From the NCBI GenBank assembly GCA_949288095.1, contig CASEIX010000024.1:1-58339 (forward strand): a DNA stretch of 58,339 bases, read 5' to 3'. The DNA comes from an uncultured Eubacteriales bacterium (lineage in GTDB: Bacteria; Bacillota; Clostridia; TANB77; CAG-508). The first letter of the stretch is position 1. Each line of letters begins with the position of its first letter. Positions 41,332 to 54,585 of this stretch are shown in pieces. Under the pieces are notes generated by a model. The model worked only from the letters and a program-made list of their open reading frames with translations, was not told the origin of the DNA and made no database searches. A program made the translations under genes and the position numbers.

Positions 41332-41419
41332 GCAGATGTGGCGGAACTGGTAGACGCACAGGACTTAAAATCCTGCGGTTGAATAAACCGTGCCGGTTCG
41401 ATTCCGGCCATCTGCACCA
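41332..41419 (+). tRNA. tRNA-Leu (anticodon UAA), type II with long variable arm, encoded CCA
   Basis: Acceptor GCAGATG pairs with CATCTGC. The anticodon stem CAGGA/TCCTG carries the loop CT-TAA-AA. The T arm is CCGGTTCGATTCCGG, followed by a discriminator A and CCA. Confidence 0.9.
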
Positions 41420-41455: not shown

Positions 41456-41821
41456 TTGTCTTAGACAACAAGGTTCTGGGGTACCCGACTGCAATCTTTG
41501 ATTGCTATGTCGGGTCAGGTTCTTATTTTTATTCAAAAGTATTTGAAAGTATTGATATGATTGCATTTTAGCTATTTTCATTATTCAATCTATTTTCAAA
41601 ATTGTTTGCCATTATTCATTAATTTTTATTTCGTGCACGGAATCTGCACAGAGGATTTGCTCGATAAAATATCCTTTGTAATAGCATTAAAAATTAAGTG
41701 TTATAGAGAGTTGATAATTAATATAGTTTATGATAATATATCTAAAGATTGTTACTAGATGATAATTATTCTACTTTTAAATAATGGAGATATACAAAAT
41801 AATATTTAAGGGAGAGGAAAG

Positions 41822-42583
41822 ATGGATAAAAAGAAAATCGTTTTAATAACAGGAGGAGCAAGTGGAATTGGATTTGGAACAATAGAATATTTATTAGAAC
41901 AAAGAAATTATGAGATTATTTCAGTTTCAAGAGGGGAGAAAAATATAGCTATAGCAAAAGAAAAATTGCGTGATAATGTTAGACATGTTACTTTTTTACA
42001 AGGAGATATAAGTTCAGAAAAAGATTGCCAAAAGATATATGAAGAAATAAATAATAAATATAGTCGATTAGATGGTTTAGTAAATTCAGCAGGAATTATA
42101 AAATTAGGTGGAATAGAAGAACAAACTTTAGAAGAATGGAATAATTCAATAAATATAAATTTGACGGGAATATTTTTATTAACGAAAACTTTATTACCTT
42201 TATTAAAAAAGGGAACAAATCCATCAATAGTTAATATTTCGTCTATGTCTTCTGAAAGGGCAGGAGGTTCAATTGCTTACTGTGCAAGTAAAGCAGGAGT
42301 AGACATGCTAACGAAATACATGGGACAAGAACTTGGCAAATATAATATAAGAGTCAATAGTGTAAATCCAGCTGCAGTATATACAAATATTTATGTTGCT
42401 AGTGGTGATTATACTCAAGAAGGATATGATAAATGGTCAGAAGATAAAAAGAAATCATATCCATTAGGACGAATAGGAGATGCCAAAAAAGATATAGCAC
42501 CAACAATAGAATTTTTATTATCAGATAAATCTCTATGGACAACAGGTTCGATTTATCTTGTAGATGGAGGAAAAAGTATATAA
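41822..42583 (+). CDS. classical short-chain dehydrogenase/reductase (FabG-like)
   Basis: TGGASGIG cofactor motif, NSAG, and catalytic S...YCASK. Confidence 0.85.
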   Translation: MDKKKIVLITGGASGIGFGTIEYLLEQRNYEIISVSRGEKNIAIAKEKLRDNVRHVTFLQGDISSEKDCQKIYEEINNKYSRLDGLVNSAGIIKLGGIEEQTLEEWNNSININLTGIFLLTKTLLPLLKKGTNPSIVNISSMSSERAGGSIAYCASKAGVDMLTKYMGQELGKYNIRVNSVNPAAVYTNIYVASGDYTQEGYDKWSEDKKKSYPLGRIGDAKKDIAPTIEFLLSDKSLWTTGSIYLVDGGKSI

Positions 42584-42756
42584 TAATTAAAAACATCATT
42601 GTTTTTAATAAATGTGTTTGTCGCCTCCTCTTTGGTGACTAATAAAAGGAGGAATATTATGGGATTATATGTAGAAATTAATGATACTTACAAATAACAA
42701 AAGAACAAAGTTTTCCAAAAGAATTAGATTGGAAACAACATCTAAAAATACCATAT

Positions 42757-43008
42757 ATGGCAGAACAATTTAAAGATAAAATATTTGAATCTAAAGACAA
42801 ACCTAGTATTAAAAACTATCAAATGCCACCAGCAAGAAATTTTTTAGTTGAAAATATTGATGGAAAAATGAAGAAAAAAGAAAAATATCCAAGTGATGTA
42901 TTTAAAAATAGGATAAAAAAAGTTGATAAAGAAATAACTAAAAAAACAGAATCGCTAGAGAATGTTCAATTAGCTAAGATGAATGATAAAAATAGAAAGC
43001 TATTTTAA
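42757..43008 (+). CDS. hypothetical basic 83-aa protein
   Basis: ORF only. There is no convincing SD. It ends 19 nt before the giant ORF. Confidence 0.3.
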   Translation: MAEQFKDKIFESKDKPSIKNYQMPPARNFLVENIDGKMKKKEKYPSDVFKNRIKKVDKEITKKTESLENVQLAKMNDKNRKLF

Positions 43009-43027
43009 CATAAATGGAGATTAAAAG

Positions 43028-46000
43028 ATGGAAGAAAAAATATTTGATATAGATAAATTTAATATAATACAAGATGAAGATAATTATTATTTGTTTAGAG
43101 CACTAAATTTAGATGACCAAAGAGAAATAAGCGAGGGATTAACGACAGAAAATGGCGTAATACAAAGAGTAATTACAAATAAACAAAGATATCCTGAAAA
43201 TGATAAATATGCAGATAGAGAAGAAATATCTTTACAAGAAGTATGGGATCATACAAAAAGTGTTAATTTTTATAAAGGAACTAATTGTATATCATTATCT
43301 TCAAATGCTAATGTATCTATAGACTATGGATCAAAATATGGTCATAAATATTCAATGATAAAAGTACCTAAAAAGCAGAGTAATCAAATATATAATGCTG
43401 GTCAATATATGCTTGTAGAATTAAATAGAGTACTTGATGAGGCTATAAGAAGAATACCACAAGATTCTGAAGTTATAAAGTTAATAGATGAAATAGAAGG
43501 TGAACATAATTATAATGAGATAAAAACTGTAATAGGAGAATGCTTTAAGACTGCAAATTCAAATGGTAAATATACATCTCAAGCTAATATAAGAGCAAGG
43601 CAATCAATGATTGAAAGGTTTAATAAAAGACAAGCTTTTTCTGAAGAACAACAGTTAGAATATAATAAAGTTATTGGGAAACTTACTGTACTTGAGTCTT
43701 ATGGAATGTTGCCAAAAGAAATTTTTGACACAATTAATATACCATCATTAATTAGAACAATAGGGAGTGAATTTTCAAATAGAGAATTTGTACATTATGG
43801 AGAAATAAGTTCAGAAGAATTGATGCCTATATCAAAAATAAATATTGATATATTTGCTTGGCTTCAAGTAGCAAAAGAACAAGGTATTGATCCACAAATA
43901 ATAGATAAAATTGAGAGAATATTTATTGAATATACAAATCAAGGATTTGAATTAGTAGAAAAAGATGGTAAATTATTTTACTCAAATGGAAAAGAAAAAA
44001 TAGATTTAGATATAGGTGATGATAGTATACTTGTAACTGAAAATAGTTTAGATAGTAGTTCAGATTTTTCTATTGATGAAATGTTTGAAAGAACGAATGG
44101 AACTATAGGCTATTCAAAATCAAAAAATGCAGCAGAATTTGTATATTCTTTAAGTATAGCACAAAGAAAATCTATAGAAATAGCAAATATTTTAAAGATA
44201 ATTTTAAATGATGATAGATTAAATGATATTTTAGAAGAAATAGGAAATAAATCAATAGCAATAAATGATGATATTATTACTAGAAAAAACGGAAGAGGAA
44301 TACAAATATCAGAATCTGTAAACATTGATATGAATAGAGGAGAAAATAAATTATTTTCAGATGACGAACAAAGAAAAATATACGAAAAAATAAAAAGTCT
44401 ATCAGTAGAACAATTGGATACTATAATATCTAAAAATGGAAAAGACCTAGAACAAGAGATTTATATAGAAAATCTAGATCACAGTGAGATTGACGAAAAT
44501 ATTACAAGAGAAGAGAGATTAAATAGATATTATGCAGAAACTATATTAGACACTTTGGATTTCTCACAAATATATAGAAATGCAATAAAGGATAAAAGCT
44601 TAAATGAGCAAGAAAGAGAACAAATATTAAATCAACTTGAAAAAGCAGATTGCAAAAGATTAGTTAAAGCTTTTATAAAAGCAGGAATAGCAGAAAGCGA
44701 AGTTGCAGGATATATTATTAATATTCTTGCAAGTAATGGTTACCAAGGCTATACATTTGAGGAATTATCTAAATTAGATAACTTAGAGGATATTATTAGC
44801 AAAAATATAAAAAATACTAATTTAAAAGGGCACGTTTATCCATCTGTAATGGAAGAGTTAAGAGGAATAAGAGATAATGATAATCGTGTAGGAGATACAT
44901 TAATTAATTTAAGAGATTATCAGCAAGAAACAGTTGATAATGTAGATGAAATATATGCAGCAGGGAAAAGATTTGCAGGAGTAGTATTACCTACTGGTGC
45001 AGGAAAATCATTTATAGCTATGGCAGAAATGCTAAAAAATCAAAATGGAAATATTTTATATATAGCACCACAAAAAGAAATTTTAAATCAAGTTCAAAGA
45101 CATATTTTAAAATACATAGCTGGAGTTGAGGTATTAACAACCAAAGAAATTAATGAGTTAAAAGAAGAGCAGAACATCACAAATATAAAAAAATTAAAAT
45201 TACCAGAGGGAAAAATACTGCCAAAACAAGTAAATGAATATGTAAAAAAAGTTTTTCCACATTTAAAAATGTTTTGCTACCAAGGATTAGCTTCTCAAGA
45301 TGAAAAAGATTTATCTGATGAACAATTAAAAGAAAGAAATGAAGAAGAAAGAGAATTACGAGAAATTTTAAAAAATGCTGATGCTAACCTAATTGTTTTA
45401 GATGAATTACATAGAAGTGGTGCAAAAACATGGAAAGGAGTAGTAGAAAAATTAATAAAATCCAATGATAAAGCAAATATACTTGGAATAACAGCTACAC
45501 CTATTAGAGATGTGGATCATGTAGACATGATGAAAGAAATAGCTAAAATGACGGGGACATATACAGACGAAGAATTAGCTCAAAAAAAGCATTTAGCATA
45601 TGAAATGTATTTAACTGATGCAATACAAAGAGGAATAGTAGTAGAACCAAAAATTGTTTCATTTGATTTTATGTTACGAGATACAGAAGAATATAAAGAA
45701 ATATTAGAAATGATAGAAAAAGAACAAGATGAAGACAAAAAAAAGAAATTAGAGGAAATTAAATCTCAAATTGATGAATTAATAAATGGTGACACTGAAA
45801 TTTCTGAATATATCAAAAATAATATTTCTTCAAAAGAAAATGAAGAGATAGGAAAAATTATAAAAAGTACAATAAGAAAGAAAGATGGAAGATATATAGT
45901 ATTTTTACCACAGAATACTACTAAGCTTCCAACAGAAGAATATATAAAACAAGAGATAGAAAAAGTAAAAGAATATTTTAAAGATATAGATGCAGATCCT

Positions 46001-49000
46001 GAAATAGGATATTTAATGAATGGAAAAGATAAAAATAATTTTAATGCAATATCTAATTTTGAAAATTCTGATTCACTTCATATAAAGTTATTATTTGCTA
46101 TAGATAAATTAAATGAAGGTGTGCATATAGATGGAATTAATGGTGAAATAATGCTTAGAAAAATTAACAATGGAAGTACTATTTTATATTTACAACAATT
46201 AGGAAGAGCAATATTTGCAATAGACCCAGACCATCCATTATCAGAAGATGAGATACCTATAGTATATGATATATATAATAATTACTTAGTGCAGAACTTG
46301 AATAGAACCATAAATGAAACAACTCCAAAATCAGATTTACAAAAATTACAAGAAATTATGGAATGGATGGATAAGCATGGCTATATTCCAGATATAAATA
46401 GTGAAAATACAATGGAAGCACGAAAAGCTATTACATTAAAGAAAATTCAAACAAAATATAAAAAATATATAGATGGAATAGATAATCCGAGATTAAGTGA
46501 ATCAGACATATATGAAATTGAACAAGTTATGGAATTAGCCAACGCAATAGATTTATTTAATATGGAAATTGGAGATAGAATAATACCACCAGGAGAAAAA
46601 GAGCTAGATGAGGTTCAACTATTTAAAGTAACAGCTGTTCAAAAGAAATTTATGGAACTATATAAAGATGCAAATAAAGTTATAGCTAATGTTGAAAGAC
46701 ATAAGAATAATCCAATAGCTAGATTAAATGATGTCATGATTATTTTGGAGACATTAAATAGCAAAGATGTATTTATAGATAATAATTTAATTCAATATAA
46801 TACTACATTAAAAGAACTTATAGAAAGATGCCCAGAAGAAATTCAAGCCAGTTTGTACGAGGAACTTTCTGACTTTGACGAAAAATATCCTATTGGCAAA
46901 GGTTATAATTTTGCTAAAGCGTCATTTAGAGATCATTATTTGTGGAAATATTATGCTGATTCAGATGTGAGAAAATTATATGCCTGTGGTATATTTGAAG
47001 ATATAGACAAAGATTATATTTTTAGGGAAGTAGAAGATTTAAGTACTAGAGATAGAATTACTAGGAAAGTATTAGATGAAGATTTTATAATTTGCGGAAA
47101 TGCGAATTTAAAGGAAATAAATGTAAAAACAGGTACTTTATATAATGAACAAGGACAGACATATAAGCAAATATGTAGCATGAGAGAAAGTAGGGAAGAG
47201 AAACAATTAGATAAACTTGTTCATGTTATTCAAGCTGTTTATAGTCGTTTTTCTTTTAGTTTTGCTAATGAAAATATAGATGAAATTCCAGAAGGTAAAA
47301 TTAGAGAAATAGTATTTAATACAACAGGAGAAGGAATAGGTATGCCGTTTTCTGATGTTCCACAAATGTACTTCTTGAAACAAGAAATATTAAAAGCTAG
47401 AGAGTATATAGAAAGTAATTATGAATCATATAATCAGGAAGATATTATTAAGTTTAAAAAATATGGTATATTACCAATAAATATAGATGAGAATGGACTG
47501 GATAAAGAAACAAAATTACCAAGAGAAGAGTTTGGAACTAATATAGAACAATATAAACAAAAAAGAGCTCAAGAAGAACAAGCTGCAAGAATAAAGGAAA
47601 GAGTGGAAAAAACAATAAGTGTATTAGAAGATATTTCATCTATTTTAGGGTATAAATATAGCTTTGCTAATGAAAATATAGATGAGCTTCCTAATAAAAA
47701 TCTTTCTGGATTTTTAGATAAATTATTAGATAGGTTAAAATTACCAGAAAGAAATAAATACCTACCTACTAAGTATTCGCTTAGAGAAGAAGTTTTATTT
47801 GCGAGAGAGCATATAGAAGAAATTTTTCCAACCATAAAAGAAGATAAATCGATGCTAATTAAATTTAAAGTATTAGGTGTATTACCATTAAAATTTGATT
47901 CAGAAGGTAATGAAATAGAAACTGGTTTGCCTAGGGATTATTTTAAAACAGGTTTGATGAATTTATATAAACAAAAAGAAAAAGAGGAAACACAAAGAAA
48001 ACAGCAAGAGGCAGAAGCAAAAAGAGATGAACGTATTAGAATGCAAAAAGAAAGAGAACAAAGAGAAAAAGAGTGGCAAGAGAGAAAAGAAAGAGAAAGA
48101 AAAAGGAAGGAAAAAGAAAAAGAAAGAAAAAAGAGAGAAAAAGAAGAACGATATAATGTTGGTGATGATGGATATAATTCAAAAGGGGAATATTTATATA
48201 AGGGAAAATTATACCCATATAATCCATTAACTGGAAAAAAAGCAGATGGCACATATGCAGTAGAAGCTAGAGATGAAAGAGGTTTTAATCCAGATAGAAC
48301 ATATAAAGATACAGGAGACTATTATGATGAAAATGGTCTAGATTATGATTATAAAGATAGAGAAGGATTTGATACAATTTATCATTTTGACAAAGACGGA
48401 TATTATTACGAAAAAAACGAAAACGGAGAATATGTAAACACAGGTTTAAAATATAATCCTATGGGATTCGGGGCAGATAAATTACATGTAGTAACTAAGA
48501 CTGCCGTAGATGTAAGAGGCTTTACAATAGATGGTAATTGTATAAGAAATGAAAATAAAAAATATGATAGAAAAGGATTTAAACAAGATGGAACACATAA
48601 GGATACTGGAGAAATCTATTATAATGGCTATAATGCATTTGGAGTTGATAAAAATGGAAAAAATGAAAAAGGAAAAACGCCAAGAGAAATAATTTTTGCA
48701 AAAGACTTTATAATTAACGGAGTGACAAAAGGTAATTTAAAAGCAACTCTAAAAAAATATGGTATAACATCTGAATATTCATTAAACTTAAATTTATATA
48801 CTGCGGCGGAAATGTGGCCTCAAATAAAATTGTTGATTCGTAGACAAATATTTGAATTCCAAACAAAGATAAAAAAAAGAGAAGATAAAATTGCACAATT
48901 AGAGAAGGAAAAAAATAATAATACCGAGTTAATAAAGAAACTGAAAAAAGATAATGAGCGATTAAAAAAGAATATTTCATATTTGAATCCAATGGAAGAG

Positions 49001-49012
49001 ATAGATAAATAA
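43028..49012 (+). CDS. giant (1,994 aa) multidomain protein with central SF2 DExH helicase core
   Basis: SD GGAG is upstream. Motif I is VVLPTGAGKSF (about nt 44991), motif II LIVLDELHRSG (about 45401), motif III GITATP and motif VI LQQLGRAIF (about 46193). The N-terminal ~620 aa and C-terminal ~900 aa are unassigned. Confidence 0.85.
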   Translation: MEEKIFDIDKFNIIQDEDNYYLFRALNLDDQREISEGLTTENGVIQRVITNKQRYPENDKYADREEISLQEVWDHTKSVNFYKGTNCISLSSNANVSIDYGSKYGHKYSMIKVPKKQSNQIYNAGQYMLVELNRVLDEAIRRIPQDSEVIKLIDEIEGEHNYNEIKTVIGECFKTANSNGKYTSQANIRARQSMIERFNKRQAFSEEQQLEYNKVIGKLTVLESYGMLPKEIFDTINIPSLIRTIGSEFSNREFVHYGEISSEELMPISKINIDIFAWLQVAKEQGIDPQIIDKIERIFIEYTNQGFELVEKDGKLFYSNGKEKIDLDIGDDSILVTENSLDSSSDFSIDEMFERTNGTIGYSKSKNAAEFVYSLSIAQRKSIEIANILKIILNDDRLNDILEEIGNKSIAINDDIITRKNGRGIQISESVNIDMNRGENKLFSDDEQRKIYEKIKSLSVEQLDTIISKNGKDLEQEIYIENLDHSEIDENITREERLNRYYAETILDTLDFSQIYRNAIKDKSLNEQEREQILNQLEKADCKRLVKAFIKAGIAESEVAGYIINILASNGYQGYTFEELSKLDNLEDIISKNIKNTNLKGHVYPSVMEELRGIRDNDNRVGDTLINLRDYQQETVDNVDEIYAAGKRFAGVVLPTGAGKSFIAMAEMLKNQNGNILYIAPQKEILNQVQRHILKYIAGVEVLTTKEINELKEEQNITNIKKLKLPEGKILPKQVNEYVKKVFPHLKMFCYQGLASQDEKDLSDEQLKERNEEERELREILKNADANLIVLDELHRSGAKTWKGVVEKLIKSNDKANILGITATPIRDVDHVDMMKEIAKMTGTYTDEELAQKKHLAYEMYLTDAIQRGIVVEPKIVSFDFMLRDTEEYKEILEMIEKEQDEDKKKKLEEIKSQIDELINGDTEISEYIKNNISSKENEEIGKIIKSTIRKKDGRYIVFLPQNTTKLPTEEYIKQEIEKVKEYFKDIDADPEIGYLMNGKDKNNFNAISNFENSDSLHIKLLFAIDKLNEGVHIDGINGEIMLRKINNGSTILYLQQLGRAIFAIDPDHPLSEDEIPIVYDIYNNYLVQNLNRTINETTPKSDLQKLQEIMEWMDKHGYIPDINSENTMEARKAITLKKIQTKYKKYIDGIDNPRLSESDIYEIEQVMELANAIDLFNMEIGDRIIPPGEKELDEVQLFKVTAVQKKFMELYKDANKVIANVERHKNNPIARLNDVMIILETLNSKDVFIDNNLIQYNTTLKELIERCPEEIQASLYEELSDFDEKYPIGKGYNFAKASFRDHYLWKYYADSDVRKLYACGIFEDIDKDYIFREVEDLSTRDRITRKVLDEDFIICGNANLKEINVKTGTLYNEQGQTYKQICSMRESREEKQLDKLVHVIQAVYSRFSFSFANENIDEIPEGKIREIVFNTTGEGIGMPFSDVPQMYFLKQEILKAREYIESNYESYNQEDIIKFKKYGILPINIDENGLDKETKLPREEFGTNIEQYKQKRAQEEQAARIKERVEKTISVLEDISSILGYKYSFANENIDELPNKNLSGFLDKLLDRLKLPERNKYLPTKYSLREEVLFAREHIEEIFPTIKEDKSMLIKFKVLGVLPLKFDSEGNEIETGLPRDYFKTGLMNLYKQKEKEETQRKQQEAEAKRDERIRMQKEREQREKEWQERKERERKRKEKEKERKKREKEERYNVGDDGYNSKGEYLYKGKLYPYNPLTGKKADGTYAVEARDERGFNPDRTYKDTGDYYDENGLDYDYKDREGFDTIYHFDKDGYYYEKNENGEYVNTGLKYNPMGFGADKLHVVTKTAVDVRGFTIDGNCIRNENKKYDRKGFKQDGTHKDTGEIYYNGYNAFGVDKNGKNEKGKTPREIIFAKDFIINGVTKGNLKATLKKYGITSEYSLNLNLYTAAEMWPQIKLLIRRQIFEFQTKIKKREDKIAQLEKEKNNNTELIKKLKKDNERLKKNISYLNPMEEIDK

Positions 49013-49026
49013 GTTAAGAGGTAAAA

Positions 49027-49410
49027 ATGAATAAAATTAAAAAATTTTTTAAAAAAATAAAAAGATATTTTAAAAGAATATTTAATAGGCAAAATACTAA
49101 ATTAATAGAAGAATCTACCATTAATAATGTTGATAAAGATATAAGCAATGATGAATTTATTGATGAAAAAAAGAAACAGAAAGAAGAGTTTTTTAATTTA
49201 TATAATAATGTGAAAAATGGTACTATTAATGTTAATAATTTGATGATAAATGATTTAATAAAAGTTCAATTTATGATGAAAAAAGAAATAGGTATTTTGG
49301 ATGAAAAAATTAATCAAAAAGAAAATGAAGTTAATATACAAAATACAGAAATAAATATATTAAATAGGGAGAAAGAAAAAAATGAAAAAAGTTCAAAAAG
49401 ATCAAGCTAA
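49027..49410 (+). CDS. hypothetical protein with basic N-terminus and coiled-coil C-terminus
   Basis: SD AGAGG is upstream. It starts 14 nt after the giant ORF stop. MNKIKKFFKKIKRYFKRIFNR... Confidence 0.5.
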   Translation: MNKIKKFFKKIKRYFKRIFNRQNTKLIEESTINNVDKDISNDEFIDEKKKQKEEFFNLYNNVKNGTINVNNLMINDLIKVQFMMKKEIGILDEKINQKENEVNIQNTEINILNREKEKNEKSSKRSS

Positions 49411-49652
49411 AAATATAAAAAATAGTGATACTAGTAAAATACTAGAAGTATGATAGAAGAATTAGAAAATTTATTAAAAATTAGGATTTGAAAGAAAGAT
49501 TTTATGAATAATGGAATATAAGTTAAATAAAAAGATATATATGTGATTTATCGAAAAATATCTTTTTAAAAGAATGAAAATATATGAAATTATATAAAAA
49601 GCTTGAAAAAATAAAGAAAACCTGATATATTTAGCTCAAAAGGAGAAAGAAA

Positions 49653-50072
49653 ATGCAAGAAATAAATCAACAAGAAAAAATAGAAGAAATGAGTCCAGAA
49701 GAAAAAAGAAAAGAAGAAAAGAAAAAAATGAGTCCGCAAGCAAAATATAGAGAAGTAACTTCATCAATACAAGTTTTATCTATTAGAGCGATAGCAGAAG
49801 GCAAGCAAGAAATATATGAAAGGTTAAGAAGATTAGCAAAATATTTGGAAGAGGTAAGAGCACAAAGACATTTATGCATGTTATCAGAAAAAGATAGAAT
49901 AGAAGAAGTAAGATATAATGAATTATTAGAATATATTGATAAACAATATGATGGAACAGAAGAGTCTCTAAAAAAGATATGTAGAGAATTGAACAAAAGA
50001 AAAAAAGATATTGAGGATGTATTAAAAGGTTGTGATAAGAAAAGTAATAAATCAAAGGAAGAAGTGAGATAA
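49653..50072 (+). CDS. hypothetical charged/coiled-coil protein
   Basis: SD AAAGGAG is upstream. Its stop overlaps the rdgB start (TAAATG). Confidence 0.5.
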   Translation: MQEINQQEKIEEMSPEEKRKEEKKKMSPQAKYREVTSSIQVLSIRAIAEGKQEIYERLRRLAKYLEEVRAQRHLCMLSEKDRIEEVRYNELLEYIDKQYDGTEESLKKICRELNKRKKDIEDVLKGCDKKSNKSKEEVR

Positions 50073-50654
50073 ATGAAAAAAGTTGTTGTAGCAACCAACA
50101 ATGCAGGAAAATTAAAAGAAATTAAAGATATATTAAAAGATTATCAGTTATTATCTTTAAAAGATGTAAATTGTAAAGTGGAAGTTGAAGAGGATAGGAA
50201 TACATTTGAAGGAAATTCTTTAAAGAAAGCACAAGAAATTTCAGAAATATTACATATGCCTTGTATAGCAGATGATAGTGGTTTATGTATAGATATATAT
50301 GATGGATGGCCAGGGGTTCATACGGCTAGATTTTTAGGCGAAAATGCAACAGCAAAAGAAAGAAATCAATATATTTTAGAAAAAATGAAGGATTTAAAGG
50401 GGACAGATAGAAAAGCAAGAGTAAAATGTTGTATTACTTATTATGAAAATGGCAACTATGTAGTTGGAAAGGGAGAAATACAAGGTAAAATTGCAGAAAG
50501 TCCAAGAGGAGATAATGGCTTTGGCTTTGATGAAATTTTTGAATTAGAAGATGGTAGAACATATGCAGAATTATCTAAAGAAGAAAAAAATCAGATTAGT
50601 CATAGAAGATTAGCTTTGCAAGATTTATTAGCAAAATTAAAAAATTACATATAA
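50073..50654 (+). CDS. rdgB: non-canonical purine NTP (XTP/dITP) pyrophosphatase
   Basis: VVATNNAGKLKEI, ADDSGLCID, GFGFDEIF and SHR motifs of the Ham1/RdgB family. Confidence 0.9.
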   Translation: MKKVVVATNNAGKLKEIKDILKDYQLLSLKDVNCKVEVEEDRNTFEGNSLKKAQEISEILHMPCIADDSGLCIDIYDGWPGVHTARFLGENATAKERNQYILEKMKDLKGTDRKARVKCCITYYENGNYVVGKGEIQGKIAESPRGDNGFGFDEIFELEDGRTYAELSKEEKNQISHRRLALQDLLAKLKNYI

Positions 50655-50853: not shown

Positions 50854-53800
50854 ATGGCAGATGTTAAATGGACCAAAGAACAGTCACAAGCAATTCATGA
50901 AAAAGGAACTAATATCTTAGTTGCAGCAGCAGCCGGAAGTGGTAAAACAGCTGTACTAGTTGAAAGAATTATTAATAAAATCATTCAAGAAAAAATAGAT
51001 ATTGATAGATTATTAGTCGTAACCTTTACAAATGCAGCAGCAGCCGAAATGAGAGAAAGGGTATTAGAAGCAATTTATCAAAAATTAGATGAAACACCAG
51101 AAAATGAAAATTTGCAAAGACAAATTACGTTATTAAATAAAGCTAGTATTTGTACAATTGATTCATTTTGTTTAGATGTGGTAAGAAATCATTTTTATGA
51201 ATTAGAAAATATATCACCGAATTTTAGAATTGCAGATACGACAGAAATTGAATTATTAAAACAAGAAGTGTTAGAAGATATATTTGAAGAAAAATATGAA
51301 AATCAGGAAGAAGATTTTGCCCAATTAATTAATACCTATACAAGTTATAGAGATGATACACCTTTAAAAGAATTGATTTTAAAAATTTATACATATATTC
51401 AAAGTAATCCATTTCCAAATCAATGGTTAGATGAAAAAATAGAAATGTTTCATATTCAAGACTTTGAGCAAGATTTTAGTCAAAATCCATGGGGAGAAAT
51501 TTTACTAAAAGAAGTAGAAGAAGAGTTAATTGATGATATTAATACACTAAAAGAACAAGCAGAAAACCTAGAAAAAAATCCTGATTTAGAAAAATATACA
51601 AAAACGATTTTTGATGATATTGATAAATTAGGAATGCTAAAAGTCAATTTAAATAGTTGGGATAAGGCATATGCTATTTATAGCAACTTAGCATTTGCTA
51701 CATGGCCAAGGCAAAAAATTGATTCTGCAATCAAAGACCAAGCAAAGTTGGTTAGAGATGATATTAAAAAGAAAGTGACAAAAAAATTAAATAAAATCTT
51801 TATATACAATTCTGAAGAAGCCAATCAAGATATAGCAGATATGTATCCTATTTTACTAAAATTAAAGCAATTGATATTTGAATTTGGAGAAGAGTTTTCA
51901 AAACGAAAAAGAAATAAAAACATGGTAGATTTTAATGATATTGAACATTTGGCATTACAAATCTTGATAAAAGAAGATGATGGAAAAGTAGAACCAACAG
52001 AAGTGGCAAAAAGCTATAAAGAAAAATTTGTGGAAATTGCCATTGATGAATATCAAGATAGTAATATGGTGCAAGAATACATTTTAACAGCCATTTCAAA
52101 GGGCAATAATATCTTTATGGTAGGGGATGTCAAACAAAGTATTTATAAATTTAGGCAAGCCATGCCAGATTTGTTTTTATCAAAATACAAAACATATCAA
52201 TTAAAAGAAAATAAAAAAGATGAAGATGATTTGAAAATACAATTATTCAAAAACTTTAGAAGTAGAGCAAATGTATTAGATTTCACCAATTTAATATTCC
52301 AAGACATTATGAGCGAAAATTTAGGAGAAATAAACTATACAGAGGAAGAATATTTGAATTTAGGTGCTAGTTATGAAGAAACATCACAAGAATTAGAAAC
52401 AGAAATTGATGTGATTGATTTAAAAGAAAAAGAAGACTTAGCACCTGAGCAAGAAGCAAGAGCAACCGAGGAATTACAAGAGGATAATGAAGAAGAAATA
52501 CAAGAAGAACGAGTAGAAGATATACAAGTTGAGGCAAGATTTGTAGCCAATAAAATAAAATCATTGGTAGAAAGTCATTTTCAAGTATTTGACAGAAAAA
52601 TCAATGGATTTAGAGATATTCAATACAAAGATATTGTTATTCTGTTAAGATCTACCAAAGTCAATGCACCGATTTTTGAAGAAGAAATGATCAATTTAGG
52701 AATGCCAGTATTTTCTGAAAGTTCTCAAGAATATCTAGATTCTATCGAAATTCAAACCATTATGAGTTTATTAAAAATTATCGATAATCCAATTCAAGAT
52801 ATTCCATTAGTAACGGTTTTAAGGTCACATATCGGAAACTTTACAGATGACGAATTGGTAGAGATTCGACTATCTGATAAATATGATAATTTTTATACAG
52901 CTATGCAAAAGGCAAGAATTAATGTAAGTCACGAATTAAAAGAAAAAATAGATACCTTCTTTCAAAACTTAGAGAAATGGAGAAAAGAAAAAGAATATTT
53001 GGCATTAGATGAATTCATCTGGAAATTATATTCAGATCCCCACTATTATACATATGTAGGATTGATGCCAAATGGAGATATCAGACAAGCCAATCTAAAA
53101 ATGTTATTTGAAAGAGCAAAACAATATGAAACTGCAAGTTTTAAAGGTTTATATAATTTTATACAATTTATAGAAAAACTCCATGTAGGAAGTAATGATT
53201 TGGGTGCTGCAAAACTAATAGGGGAAAATGATGATGTTATCAGAATTATGAGTATCCATAAAAGTAAGGGATTGGAATTCCCAGTTGTCTTTTTATCAGC
53301 AACAGGAAAACAATTTAATTTAATGGATTTAAATCAAAATATATTATTACATCAAGAATTAGGAATTGGTGTCAAATATATCGATTATGAAAGACAAGTC
53401 CAATATGATACTCTAACCAAAGAGGCTATTAGAAATAAAATTTTAACAGAAACCTTATCAGAAGAAATGAGAATATTGTATGTTGCTTTAACAAGAGCAA
53501 AAGAAAAATTATATATTACAGGATTAAAAAGAGATTACGAAAAAGAAATGGAAAATATGCAAAAGCAAGTCAGTCGTTATCATAAGGTAAATGACAAGAT
53601 AAACTATATTTTAGTGAAAAAGTATAAAAAATATTTAGATTGGATTTTATTAGTTTATCTATATGAGAAAGAAAATAAAGACCAATTATTAACATTAAAT
53701 GCATGGAATAAGCAAGAACTATTAAAGTCTTTTGAAAAACCAAAAGAAGAAATGGTAGATATTAAAGAACAGTTAGAAAATACAACTATTCAAAAAGATG

Positions 53801-54585
53801 AATTTGAAAAAATCAATACCATTTTGAATTATACATATACACATCAATTAGCAACAACAATTCCAACAATGACATCTGTTACAAAAATTAAGCAAATGAA
53901 AATGCAAGCAAATAGTAATGTCAATACAGATACAGTAGGAGAAAAAGAAAATACATATGTAATTAGCAAACCAAAAAACATGGAAAGTGAAATGGAGTTA
54001 GAAAATCAAGTTGAAAATCAATTGACTTTCAATAAACCAAATTTCATGAGAGAAGATAAAGATGATGTTGTCACTCCTGCACAAAAAGGAACTCTCGTTC
54101 ATATGTGTATGCAAAGATTAGATGAAACAAAAGAATATACATTAGAAATGATACAAGCTTTAATAGAAGATTTAGTAAAAAGAGAAATCATCACAGAGAA
54201 AGAAGCAAAAAGTATTAATCCATATAAGGTATTAGAATTTACAAAATCAACCATTTGGAAAGCTTTGAAATCTGCAAAAAAGGTATATAAAGAAAGACCA
54301 TTTTTTATCAATATACCAGCAAAAGAAATTTATGAAGAAGAAGTAGAAGAGGAGATTTTAGTACAAGGAATTATTGATTTGTATTATATTGGTCAAAATG
54401 ATGAAGTGGTTTTAGTAGATTATAAAACAGACTATGTGGAAAAAGGAAAAGAAAGCGAATTAGTAGAAAAATATATTTCACAACTAGAATTATATAAAAA
54501 AGCATTAGAAGAAAGTTTACAAAGAAAAGTAGATAAAACATATATATATTCTGTATATCTAGGAAAAGAAATTGAAATTGCTTGA
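50854..54585 (+). CDS. addA: ATP-dependent helicase/nuclease subunit A (AddA)
   Basis: UvrD-like N-terminus WTKEQSQAIHEKGTNILVAAAAGSGKTAVLVERI and the C-terminal RecB-type nuclease motif GIIDLYY...VLVDYKTD. Confidence 0.9.
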   Translation: MADVKWTKEQSQAIHEKGTNILVAAAAGSGKTAVLVERIINKIIQEKIDIDRLLVVTFTNAAAAEMRERVLEAIYQKLDETPENENLQRQITLLNKASICTIDSFCLDVVRNHFYELENISPNFRIADTTEIELLKQEVLEDIFEEKYENQEEDFAQLINTYTSYRDDTPLKELILKIYTYIQSNPFPNQWLDEKIEMFHIQDFEQDFSQNPWGEILLKEVEEELIDDINTLKEQAENLEKNPDLEKYTKTIFDDIDKLGMLKVNLNSWDKAYAIYSNLAFATWPRQKIDSAIKDQAKLVRDDIKKKVTKKLNKIFIYNSEEANQDIADMYPILLKLKQLIFEFGEEFSKRKRNKNMVDFNDIEHLALQILIKEDDGKVEPTEVAKSYKEKFVEIAIDEYQDSNMVQEYILTAISKGNNIFMVGDVKQSIYKFRQAMPDLFLSKYKTYQLKENKKDEDDLKIQLFKNFRSRANVLDFTNLIFQDIMSENLGEINYTEEEYLNLGASYEETSQELETEIDVIDLKEKEDLAPEQEARATEELQEDNEEEIQEERVEDIQVEARFVANKIKSLVESHFQVFDRKINGFRDIQYKDIVILLRSTKVNAPIFEEEMINLGMPVFSESSQEYLDSIEIQTIMSLLKIIDNPIQDIPLVTVLRSHIGNFTDDELVEIRLSDKYDNFYTAMQKARINVSHELKEKIDTFFQNLEKWRKEKEYLALDEFIWKLYSDPHYYTYVGLMPNGDIRQANLKMLFERAKQYETASFKGLYNFIQFIEKLHVGSNDLGAAKLIGENDDVIRIMSIHKSKGLEFPVVFLSATGKQFNLMDLNQNILLHQELGIGVKYIDYERQVQYDTLTKEAIRNKILTETLSEEMRILYVALTRAKEKLYITGLKRDYEKEMENMQKQVSRYHKVNDKINYILVKKYKKYLDWILLVYLYEKENKDQLLTLNAWNKQELLKSFEKPKEEMVDIKEQLENTTIQKDEFEKINTILNYTYTHQLATTIPTMTSVTKIKQMKMQANSNVNTDTVGEKENTYVISKPKNMESEMELENQVENQLTFNKPNFMREDKDDVVTPAQKGTLVHMCMQRLDETKEYTLEMIQALIEDLVKREIITEKEAKSINPYKVLEFTKSTIWKALKSAKKVYKERPFFINIPAKEIYEEEVEEEILVQGIIDLYYIGQNDEVVLVDYKTDYVEKGKESELVEKYISQLELYKKALEESLQRKVDKTYIYSVYLGKEIEIA

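Follow-up and report, generated by a model that had tools for sequence, protein, structure and literature searches.

What kind of protein is encoded by a 6-kb gene that lies among housekeeping genes of an uncultured gut bacterium, and do the small open reading frames (ORFs) packed around it belong to it? The gene is found in a contig of 58,339 nucleotides (CASEIX010000024.1 of assembly GCA_949288095.1; hereafter the window) from an uncultured Eubacteriales bacterium of the CAG-508 lineage. A reading made from the sequence alone had recognized a helicase core in the giant product and had proposed that it forms, with three short flanking ORFs downstream of a tRNA-Leu gene, a novel conflict or defence module. 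Our analysis leaves the idea of a conflict module plausible and partly supported, whereas the gene content given to the module and the argument from a tRNA-adjacent island are not supported. The unit consists of two genes, which encode the giant and a partner of 127 amino acids (aa). The giant is predicted to join an ADP-ribosyltransferase (ART)-like domain to a DExH motor, and the pair is a candidate for, and probably represents, a conflict or defence module of a new kind. The reading that we favour, tentatively and at somewhat less than even chances, is that of a helicase-guided, NAD+-using effector with a small helical partner, whose likeliest role would be in genetic conflict. The enzymatic activity, the substrate, the role of the partner and the biological function of the module are what we infer from the features of the two genes, which are the following.

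43028..49012, + strand: giant ORF, 1,994 aa
43028..43897, + strand: giant aa 1-290, predicted ADP-ribosyltransferase-like domain with an R24/H75/S89/E253 signature and a helical insert at aa 124-251
43898..44887, + strand: giant aa 291-620, mostly helical domain, within the confident model of aa 1-621
44888..46297, + strand: giant aa 621-1090, predicted superfamily 2 (SF2) DExH helicase/translocase core with motifs I, Ia, II, III, V and VI
46298..47155, + strand: giant aa 1091-1376, helical extension, from BLAST coverage and the consensus alignment
47156..47977, + strand: giant aa 1377-1650, two tandem repeats of ~134 aa ('SFANENIDE(I/L)P...')
47978..48682, + strand: Lys/Glu-rich linker (giant aa 1651-1710), then Gly/Tyr/Asp-rich short repeats (aa 1711-1885)
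48683..49012, + strand: giant aa 1886-1994, C-terminal tail ending in a predicted coiled coil
49027..49410, + strand: partner ORF, 127 aa, with an N-terminal cationic amphipathic helix (KIKKFFKKIKRYFKRIF), a conserved 'NGxI..DLMIxDLIKV' core and a coiled-coil tail

The prediction that aa 1-290 form an ART-like domain of the R-S-E type is supported most strongly by a pattern of residues. In the R-[ST]-E clade the catalytic Arg is found on strand 1, the Ser/Thr on strand 2 and the Glu on the strand after the ARTT loop (PMC11606950). In the AlphaFold2 model of aa 1-290 (pLDDT 88.2, pTM 0.88) R24 closes strand 19-25 (consensus 'YYxFRA'), S89 lies within strand 87-91 ('TNCISLSSN') with a helix next to it, and E253 opens strand 253-257 ('SSxExIHYG'), an arrangement that matches the order and placement of this catalytic triad. 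Among 232 relatives R24 and E253 are each retained in 231 and S89 in 230, and these positions are kept though overall identity drops to ~30% and the surrounding positions vary. An invariant His (H75, retained in 223 of the 232) precedes S89 by 14 residues, a position that we take to recall His44 of cholera toxin and His35 of pertussis toxin.

The ranking of structural matches points the same way. In Foldseek searches of the PDB, cholera toxin A1 ranks first for the model of aa 1-290 and for that of aa 1-621 (pLDDT 85.7), and 19 of the 20 best matches of aa 1-290 are R-S-E ARTs of the cholera/pertussis group, the ART matches comprising cholera toxin A1, LT chimeras, CARDS, PltA/typhoid toxin, pertussis S1 and Rhs TreTu. 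The best match, to cholera toxin A1, has an E value of 0.033 and a probability of 0.98 over 111 columns. These toxins share with the giant the Arg on strand 1, the Ser in an S-x-S/T strand that leads into a helix, and the Glu that opens a later strand. The giant differs from them in having no detectable sequence homology, in the 130-residue helical insert before the Glu strand, in S/N-x-E where they have E/Q-x-E, and in the setting of its domain, which is N-terminal, cytoplasmic and fused to a helicase, with neither a secretion signal nor a B-subunit. The DNA-modifying pierisin and Scabin enzymes belong to the same clade as the cholera and pertussis toxins. Membership of the giant in the R-S-E clade is backed by the triad and the fold ranking, and not by sequence profiles or the [EQ]xE dyad. 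A viral relative of the domain was looked for in BFVD and not accepted, the search having returned only weak and mixed matches (PARP catalytic, ART-PolyVal, DarT and ModA), all at E > 0.1.

Several results weigh against the reading that we favour, those on the domain being taken here and those on its genomic setting below. The Foldseek scores are modest (TM 0.23-0.44 over ~115 aligned columns, none reaching E 0.001), partly because the helical insert at aa 124-251 interrupts the fold. A profile built from aa 1-290 found nothing among PDB sequences at E values up to 10 and no ART family in Pfam, and no known ART occurs among the 288 clusters that it matched in a far larger collection. The [EQ]-x-E dyad is not present: two positions before E253 the family consensus has Ser and the window protein has Asn, and of the ARTT-loop dyad only the second, catalytic-type Glu is retained. 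The same observations, namely no link to ARTs by profile hidden Markov models (HMMs), Foldseek E values above 0.01 with TM below 0.5, and an S/N-x-E motif, would fit an N-terminal domain that is a structural or regulatory module only superficially like an ART, in which case the pair would be a large helicase with a small accessory subunit. We regard such a non-enzymatic domain as distinctly unlikely, since nearly all structural matches fall in one enzyme family and since R, S and E stand on the expected strands and are ~99% invariant in 232 sequences while their neighbours vary.

The first ~620 residues had been thought unassignable, which no longer holds for aa 1-290 and still holds for aa 291-620. 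This mostly helical region gave no structural match in the Foldseek search with the aa 1-621 model and no Pfam match, and it is conserved in all relatives.

Behind it the giant is predicted, from its motifs, to carry an intact DExH motor. The signatures PTGAGKS (aa 655), LDELH (aa 791), GITATP (aa 820) and LQQLGR (aa 1055) lie at nt 44990-46200, in agreement with the core placed earlier at about nt 44900..46250, and the helicase motifs are near-invariant in 25 relatives; an insert separates motifs Ia and II. The Pfam models ResIII (76.7 bits against a cut-off of 22.5, E 2.5e-21) and DEAD (51.4 bits against 26, E 1.3e-13) together span aa 626-831, and no other Pfam, NCBIfam or PADLOC model passes on the giant; searches of the whole protein and of its segments against these collections and PHROGs returned nothing beyond the helicase core. 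The closest solved relatives of the core are the dsDNA translocases RadD (6jde, E 4e-9) and XPB/Rad25, and it is with RadD, XPB and ResIII-type SF2 translocases that it shares its motif set and its best sequence matches. The similarity to RadD and XPB is nevertheless confined to the regions of motifs I-Ia and II, and the giant remains far below the equivalog cut-offs of both families (RadD, NF053632, 64.9 bits against 720; XPB, NF045503, 34.4 against 610), from which it differs further by its Ia-II insert and by some 620 additional residues N-terminally and 900 C-terminally. A full-length match to a housekeeping helicase family, which would have spoken for a core function, was accordingly not found. 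Sub-threshold PADLOC matches fall in the helicase core, to mREase_IV (E 2.3e-6 over 49 residues) and to Cas3 (E 2.7e-4).

All relatives share a conserved module that starts at residue 1 and ends near aa 1200 (~33% identity), and in the closer ones it continues to aa 1376; beyond it the C-terminus is variable and repetitive. The two 134-aa repeats are evident in a protein self-alignment (score 194, against 33.6 +/- 7 for shuffles) and in a DNA direct repeat that pairs 47257-47289 with 47659-47691 at 91% identity, and this tandem-repeat region is the fastest-evolving part of the giant, with a ratio of nonsynonymous to synonymous divergence (dN/dS) of 0.85-0.9 against a sister strain. The Gly/Tyr/Asp-rich repeats recur in relatives in varying copy number, and the C-terminal tail is conserved in those relatives that have a partner of the window's type (type A, below). 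As the sequence-only reading had it, the C-terminal ~900 residues hold no assignable motif: Pfam gave no match in any C-terminal segment, the tail yielding only noise of the coiled-coil type. The helical modules after the helicase resemble by eye a helicase-associated (HA) domain, a likeness that Pfam did not confirm and that is not claimed here. At the C-terminal or the N-terminal end relatives carry extra modules, namely an RNA-polymerase alpha C-terminal domain (alpha-CTD), Myb/SANT, HNH-associated repeats and, in some, an N-terminal HD domain, which suggests that these proteins act inside the cell, on DNA or on the transcription machinery. Hits to LysM and PMBR in relatives are fragmentary and were not accepted as evidence of cell-wall binding.

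The second gene of the unit is the 127-aa ORF, whose start lies 14 nt past the stop of the giant and is preceded by an AAGAGG Shine-Dalgarno sequence. The head helix of the window partner has a charge of +9 and a hydrophobic moment of 0.92. Homologues of the 127-aa partner directly follow the giant in loci L001-L013, and in ~35 loci an ORF of 116-160 aa follows it at -53..+38 nt, mostly at -14..+38. These ORFs are of three types, of which A (that of the window) and B start with a cationic amphipathic helix 'IFxKIxxFFKKIF' and type C ends with the same helix; the type of partner co-varies with the type of C-terminal tail in the giant. The type-A family has 35 members only. The partner matched nothing in Pfam, NCBIfam, PADLOC or PHROG and contains no macro or ARH hydrolase domain.

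Of the four ORFs that had been read as an operon-like block, it is this pair that is conserved as a unit. The other two ORFs and the region ahead of the giant are as follows.

42757..43008, + strand: 83-aa ORF
42872..43027, + strand: conserved 5' leader/promoter region of the block, beginning where a 96%-identity stretch shared with the sister strain begins (42872)
49653..50072, + strand: 139-aa ORF

The packing itself was described correctly, with 19 nt between the 83-aa ORF and the giant and with all block ORFs on the + strand at the coordinates given. A trio or quartet is ruled out by missing homologues, a broken frame and the arrangement in the sister strain. The 83-aa ORF is without homologues at other loci, no Shine-Dalgarno sequence precedes it, and in the sister strain its reading frame is disrupted. 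Its 3' half is more plausibly leader sequence of the giant gene, whose ATG has a GGAG Shine-Dalgarno sequence 9 nt ahead of it. No Rfam riboswitch or leader family matches upstream of the giant, and promoter and terminator scans were uninformative. The 139-aa ORF belongs with the downstream gene rdgB, because its homologue in the sister strain, a 209-aa ORF, directly precedes rdgB there, 4 kb from the block. Its stop (TAA, 50070-50072) had been said to overlap rdgB; it merely abuts the ATG. The Lys/Glu-rich 139-aa product has no family match, the TAA-then-ATG junction makes its gene translationally coupled to rdgB, and the 209-aa counterpart contains an internal duplication.

The description of the giant as an orphan is correct in that it is unannotated and incorrect in that it has 287 detectable relatives, none of them named. 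Since 1,994 codons are open in DNA of 27% GC and these homologues exist, the giant is no chance ORF. The profile of aa 1-290 matched its 288 clusters among 1.84 billion cluster representatives; in them the ART-like domain is always N-terminal or follows an extension of ~220 residues, the full-length clusters being large helicases and many of the others short fragments. Counting one genome per species there are 111 relatives, all in metagenome-assembled genomes (MAGs) of uncultured low-GC gut bacteria labelled as Clostridia, Bacilli, Mollicutes, Clostridium sp. CAG:492 and Candidatus Scatovivens, with the family present in genomes of 1.4-1.6 Mb. The family is one of uncultured gut bacteria that had not been described before, and our search of the literature found no description of an architecture joining an ART-like domain to a helicase.

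The ~220-residue extension ahead of the ART-like domain occurs in about ten clusters (P0034, P0056, P0156, P0177, P0188, P0204, P0215, P0229, P0255 and P0256) and is an HD phosphohydrolase domain in both of those scanned (P0034 and P0056); P0034 additionally ends in an RNA-polymerase alpha C-terminal domain. Several MAGs (CALXHG01, JAFWJA01, CAKOYQ01 and CAKPJC01) carry two giant paralogues per genome, and at L040:1-9019 an unsplit copy comes directly after a giant of the split type described below, which has a partner of its own.

Is the pair then a fixed part of the chromosome? Its surroundings vary by lineage and include sigma factor/ABC transporter, RNase R/TRAM methylase, PGM/MetRS, LigA..MetK and Zeta-toxin/PHP neighbours, and a copy 87% identical to that of the window (L098) lies at an unrelated locus, so that homologues are not always found at one place, as they would be for a core gene. 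In the sister strain a 94%-identical copy (L096/L097) sits on the same side of rdgB-addA with five genes interposed and with different upstream sequence. By blastn the window and the sister strain are 96.3% identical over 42872..49447 and 85-93% in the flanks. Between the two strains the giant shows a synonymous divergence (dS) of 0.075 and the partner one of 0.017, against 0.343 for addA (1,243 codons), 0.362 for rdgB and 0.50 for a 156-aa ORF, about 4.6 times lower in the block than in these three flanking housekeeping genes, while dN/dS is 0.38 overall for the block and 0.11-0.14 in the flanks. The lower dS and the higher identity indicate an exchange of the block that postdates the split of the lineages. 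Among related loci, the L098 copy (L098:6220-12597) looks interrupted, with ORFs of 1,714 and 183 aa and a 120-aa partner, and may be decaying or frameshifted. A Zeta-toxin and PHP-domain gene pair stands upstream of the giant at two unrelated loci (L004:3197-5077 and L095:6931-8749), directly adjacent in L095.

The gap that separates the block from rdgB varies in content and is occupied in the sister strain by a 133-aa ORF, SIR2, GIY-YIG, a 334-aa ORF on the - strand and the 209-aa ORF; the sister strain is also without the upstream SDR gene. Three intergenic segments (X, 49447-49534; Y, 42578-42646; Z, 41602-41716) differ in order between the two strains, Y being a CCTCC...GGAGG hairpin that is duplicated in the sister strain. 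A circularly permuted element was considered and dropped, X and Y being only flank-like in their similarity and Y not contiguous with the sister-strain block.

The genomic results that count on the opposite side begin with the contrast in dS itself, which is that of a single strain pair. In the clade L008-L011 the pair is syntenic and block dS is not clearly below that of the flanks, so that the signal of horizontal exchange is not general, and in a prevalent species (L099-L101) the locus is stable across samples with flank-like dS. Synteny within clades and flank-like dS fit the vertical inheritance of a useful chromosomal gene. The 119 flanking genes from ~35 loci are mostly housekeeping, with no Pfam or PADLOC family in more than three of them, and show no defence-island context; PADLOC-DB v2.0 returned nothing significant for giant or partner; and no macro, ARH or NADAR reversal enzyme, methylase or nuclease stands beside the module. 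Relatives are lacking in 50,697 INPHARED phage records and in IMG/VR, and a plasmid collection yielded only remote matches to the helicase core, in four plasmids. Taken together with the short-term stability, the differences in locus describe a chromosomal module that keeps its place over short times, is relocated or exchanged over longer ones, and has no recombinase of its own.

Much of this would suit a housekeeping repair or transcription helicase of the RadD/XPB kind, belonging to reduced-genome gut Clostridia and Bacilli, in which the ART-like domain is regulatory and which is inherited vertically and shuffled by rearrangement. To the housekeeping neighbours and the stable synteny within species and close relatives such a helicase would add the affinity of the core to RadD and XPB, the absence of any compositional anomaly at the block, the alpha-CTD and Myb fusions of relatives, which suggest transcription-linked work, and retention in genomes of 1.4-1.6 Mb. 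It is harder to reconcile with loci that differ even among copies 87-94% identical, with the 4.6-fold lower dS between window and sister strain, with paralogues within one genome, tandem in L040, with a variable C-terminus whose dN/dS approaches 0.9, with a family of just 288 clusters per 1.84 billion representatives, and with one copy in an integrative mobilisable element. On balance we consider a housekeeping helicase unlikely, though less so than the other alternatives.

That one copy (P0076, 1 of ~45 loci examined) lies between integrase, relaxase, MobC, HTH_17 and DUF6076 genes and raises another possibility, that the giant is cargo of mobile elements, a polyvalent or anti-defence protein by which an integrative or conjugative element or a prophage modifies targets in its host. 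Polyvalent proteins are giant multidomain proteins encoded by phages and conjugative elements that may join ART and SF2 helicase modules (Iyer et al., 2017; PMC5512222), and the block appears to be mobile in one piece, bounded sharply at 42872 and 49447. The ART of polyvalent proteins, however, is of the H-Y-D type and accompanied by an SNF2 helicase and an adenine methylase (PMC5512222), whereas the giant has an R-S-E signature, a ResIII/RadD-like core and no methylase domain, is chromosomal, and is absent from the phage and IMG/VR data, with only the remote core matches in four plasmids; integrases, moreover, make up just two of the 119 flanking genes. We therefore hold the cargo explanation to be improbable.

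The giant falls outside RadD, XPB and each of the named defence and polyvalent-protein families with which it was compared, in keeping with the earlier remark that its architecture could not be named. It resembles Cas3, the Res subunits of Type I/III/ISP systems, DruE of Druantia and HamB of Hachiman in that a single large protein with few partners contains both an effector and an SF2 translocase, and those relatives that add an N-terminal HD domain recall the HD-helicase arrangement of Cas3 in particular. It differs from all of them in an effector that is ART-like and not a nuclease and in having no methylase, CRISPR or Cascade partner, and from Cas3 in that the PADLOC match is limited to the helicase core. 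Helical immunity proteins such as Tri1 and TriX can block the R-S-ExE site of ART toxins (PMC11606950), and the giant and its partner, a small gene adjacent to and co-inherited with that of an ART-type protein, are in this respect like DarT-DarG, Tre1-Tri1 and TreX-TriX. Unlike DarG and partners of its type the window partner has no macro or ARH hydrolase domain, and unlike the toxins DarT, Tre1 and TreX the ART-like domain is embedded in a 2,000-aa helicase.

In the helicase-guided effector that we favour, the C-terminal repeats would pick a nucleic-acid or nucleoprotein target and the helicase would move along it, bringing the ART-like domain to its place of action, where it may ADP-ribosylate DNA or a DNA-bound protein, or consume or hydrolyse NAD+. 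Restriction enzymes and Cas3 follow this logic of an effector carried to its target by a helicase; in the giant an ART would replace the nuclease. The partner would bind the C-terminal coiled-coil tail of the giant and might either restrain the enzyme, like the helical immunity proteins of R-S-E ART toxins, or tether it to the membrane or to DNA by its cationic amphipathic helix. The module could serve in defence against incoming DNA or be addiction-like; a defence role is plausible. A bolder version is a nuclease-free, restriction-like immune enzyme whose translocase-borne ART, of the cholera-toxin type, would ADP-ribosylate foreign DNA or its polymerase, with the repeats setting specificity, the partner holding the enzyme inactive or at the membrane until DNA comes in, and a frameshift perhaps tuning the output of one subfamily; we offer it as a speculation that has the odds against it.

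The frameshift concerns related loci outside the window, where in one paralogue subfamily the giant gene occupies two overlapping frames (L022:10047, L023:3745, L028:10038, L029:10047, L031:2247, L038:8386, L040:511, L071:5606, L074:6730 and L083:10038). Frame 0 runs to ...HGPVNT-x-RKK and then a stop, and the +1 frame, which encodes GRSKDEIIADVFP...VLDELH (motif II), opens only ~20 nt earlier and lacks a start codon over the 100-240 nt that follow. In unsplit relatives a single frame reads HGPVNTI(G/R)(R/K)(S/T)KDEII. The 9-mer CGGAAGAAG is identical in all ten split loci while neighbouring codons vary, and one split locus is part of a circular HiFi MAG. These sequences are best explained by a putative programmed +1 ribosomal frameshift at a rare CGG codon, by which either a ~685-aa ART-only product or the full-length protein would be made.

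The window locus itself offers little that marks an island. Around the block lie the following genes.

41332..41419: tRNA-Leu(taa)
41822..42583: SDR gene
50073..50654, + strand: Ham1/RdgB gene (rdgB)
50854..54585, + strand: AddA-like gene, UvrD helicase with PD-(D/E)XK nuclease

The order in the window is RNase Y, YmdB, dUTPase, CarD, tRNA-Leu, SDR, the block, RdgB, the AddA-like gene and NFACT/RqcH, housekeeping genes that are on the + strand throughout except for the last (-). The tRNA-Leu and SDR neighbours are as first described, and so is the lack of integrase, methylase and conjugation genes, none of which occurs within ~7 kb of the block. Adjacency to a tRNA, taken before as typical of accessory islands, is incidental, a tRNA being found within 8-10 kb in 8 of 49 loci only. 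GC content is ~27% across the window with no dip at the block relative to its flanks, and no convincing direct or inverted repeats mark an insertion around it. The AddA-like gene after rdgB has no neighbouring addB, and its final 340 codons evolve faster (dN/dS 0.27, against 0.03-0.08 elsewhere in the gene).

If the N-terminal domain is active, it would represent an unrecognized lineage of R-S-E ARTs, invisible to sequence profiles and fused to a DNA motor, a combination that has not been described for chromosomal bacterial genes. An ART effector would then join the theme of a helicase that delivers an effector, as in restriction and CRISPR enzymes, and a motor-coupled enzyme that ADP-ribosylates nucleic acid or protein would be a possible tool, comparable to the DarT2-based editors (PMC11601458). 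For its hosts each copy of the module represents a cost of ~0.4% of a 1.5 Mb genome, and if the reading proposed here is true, defence-finding tools miss whole families in the small-genome uncultured gut Firmicutes that carry it.

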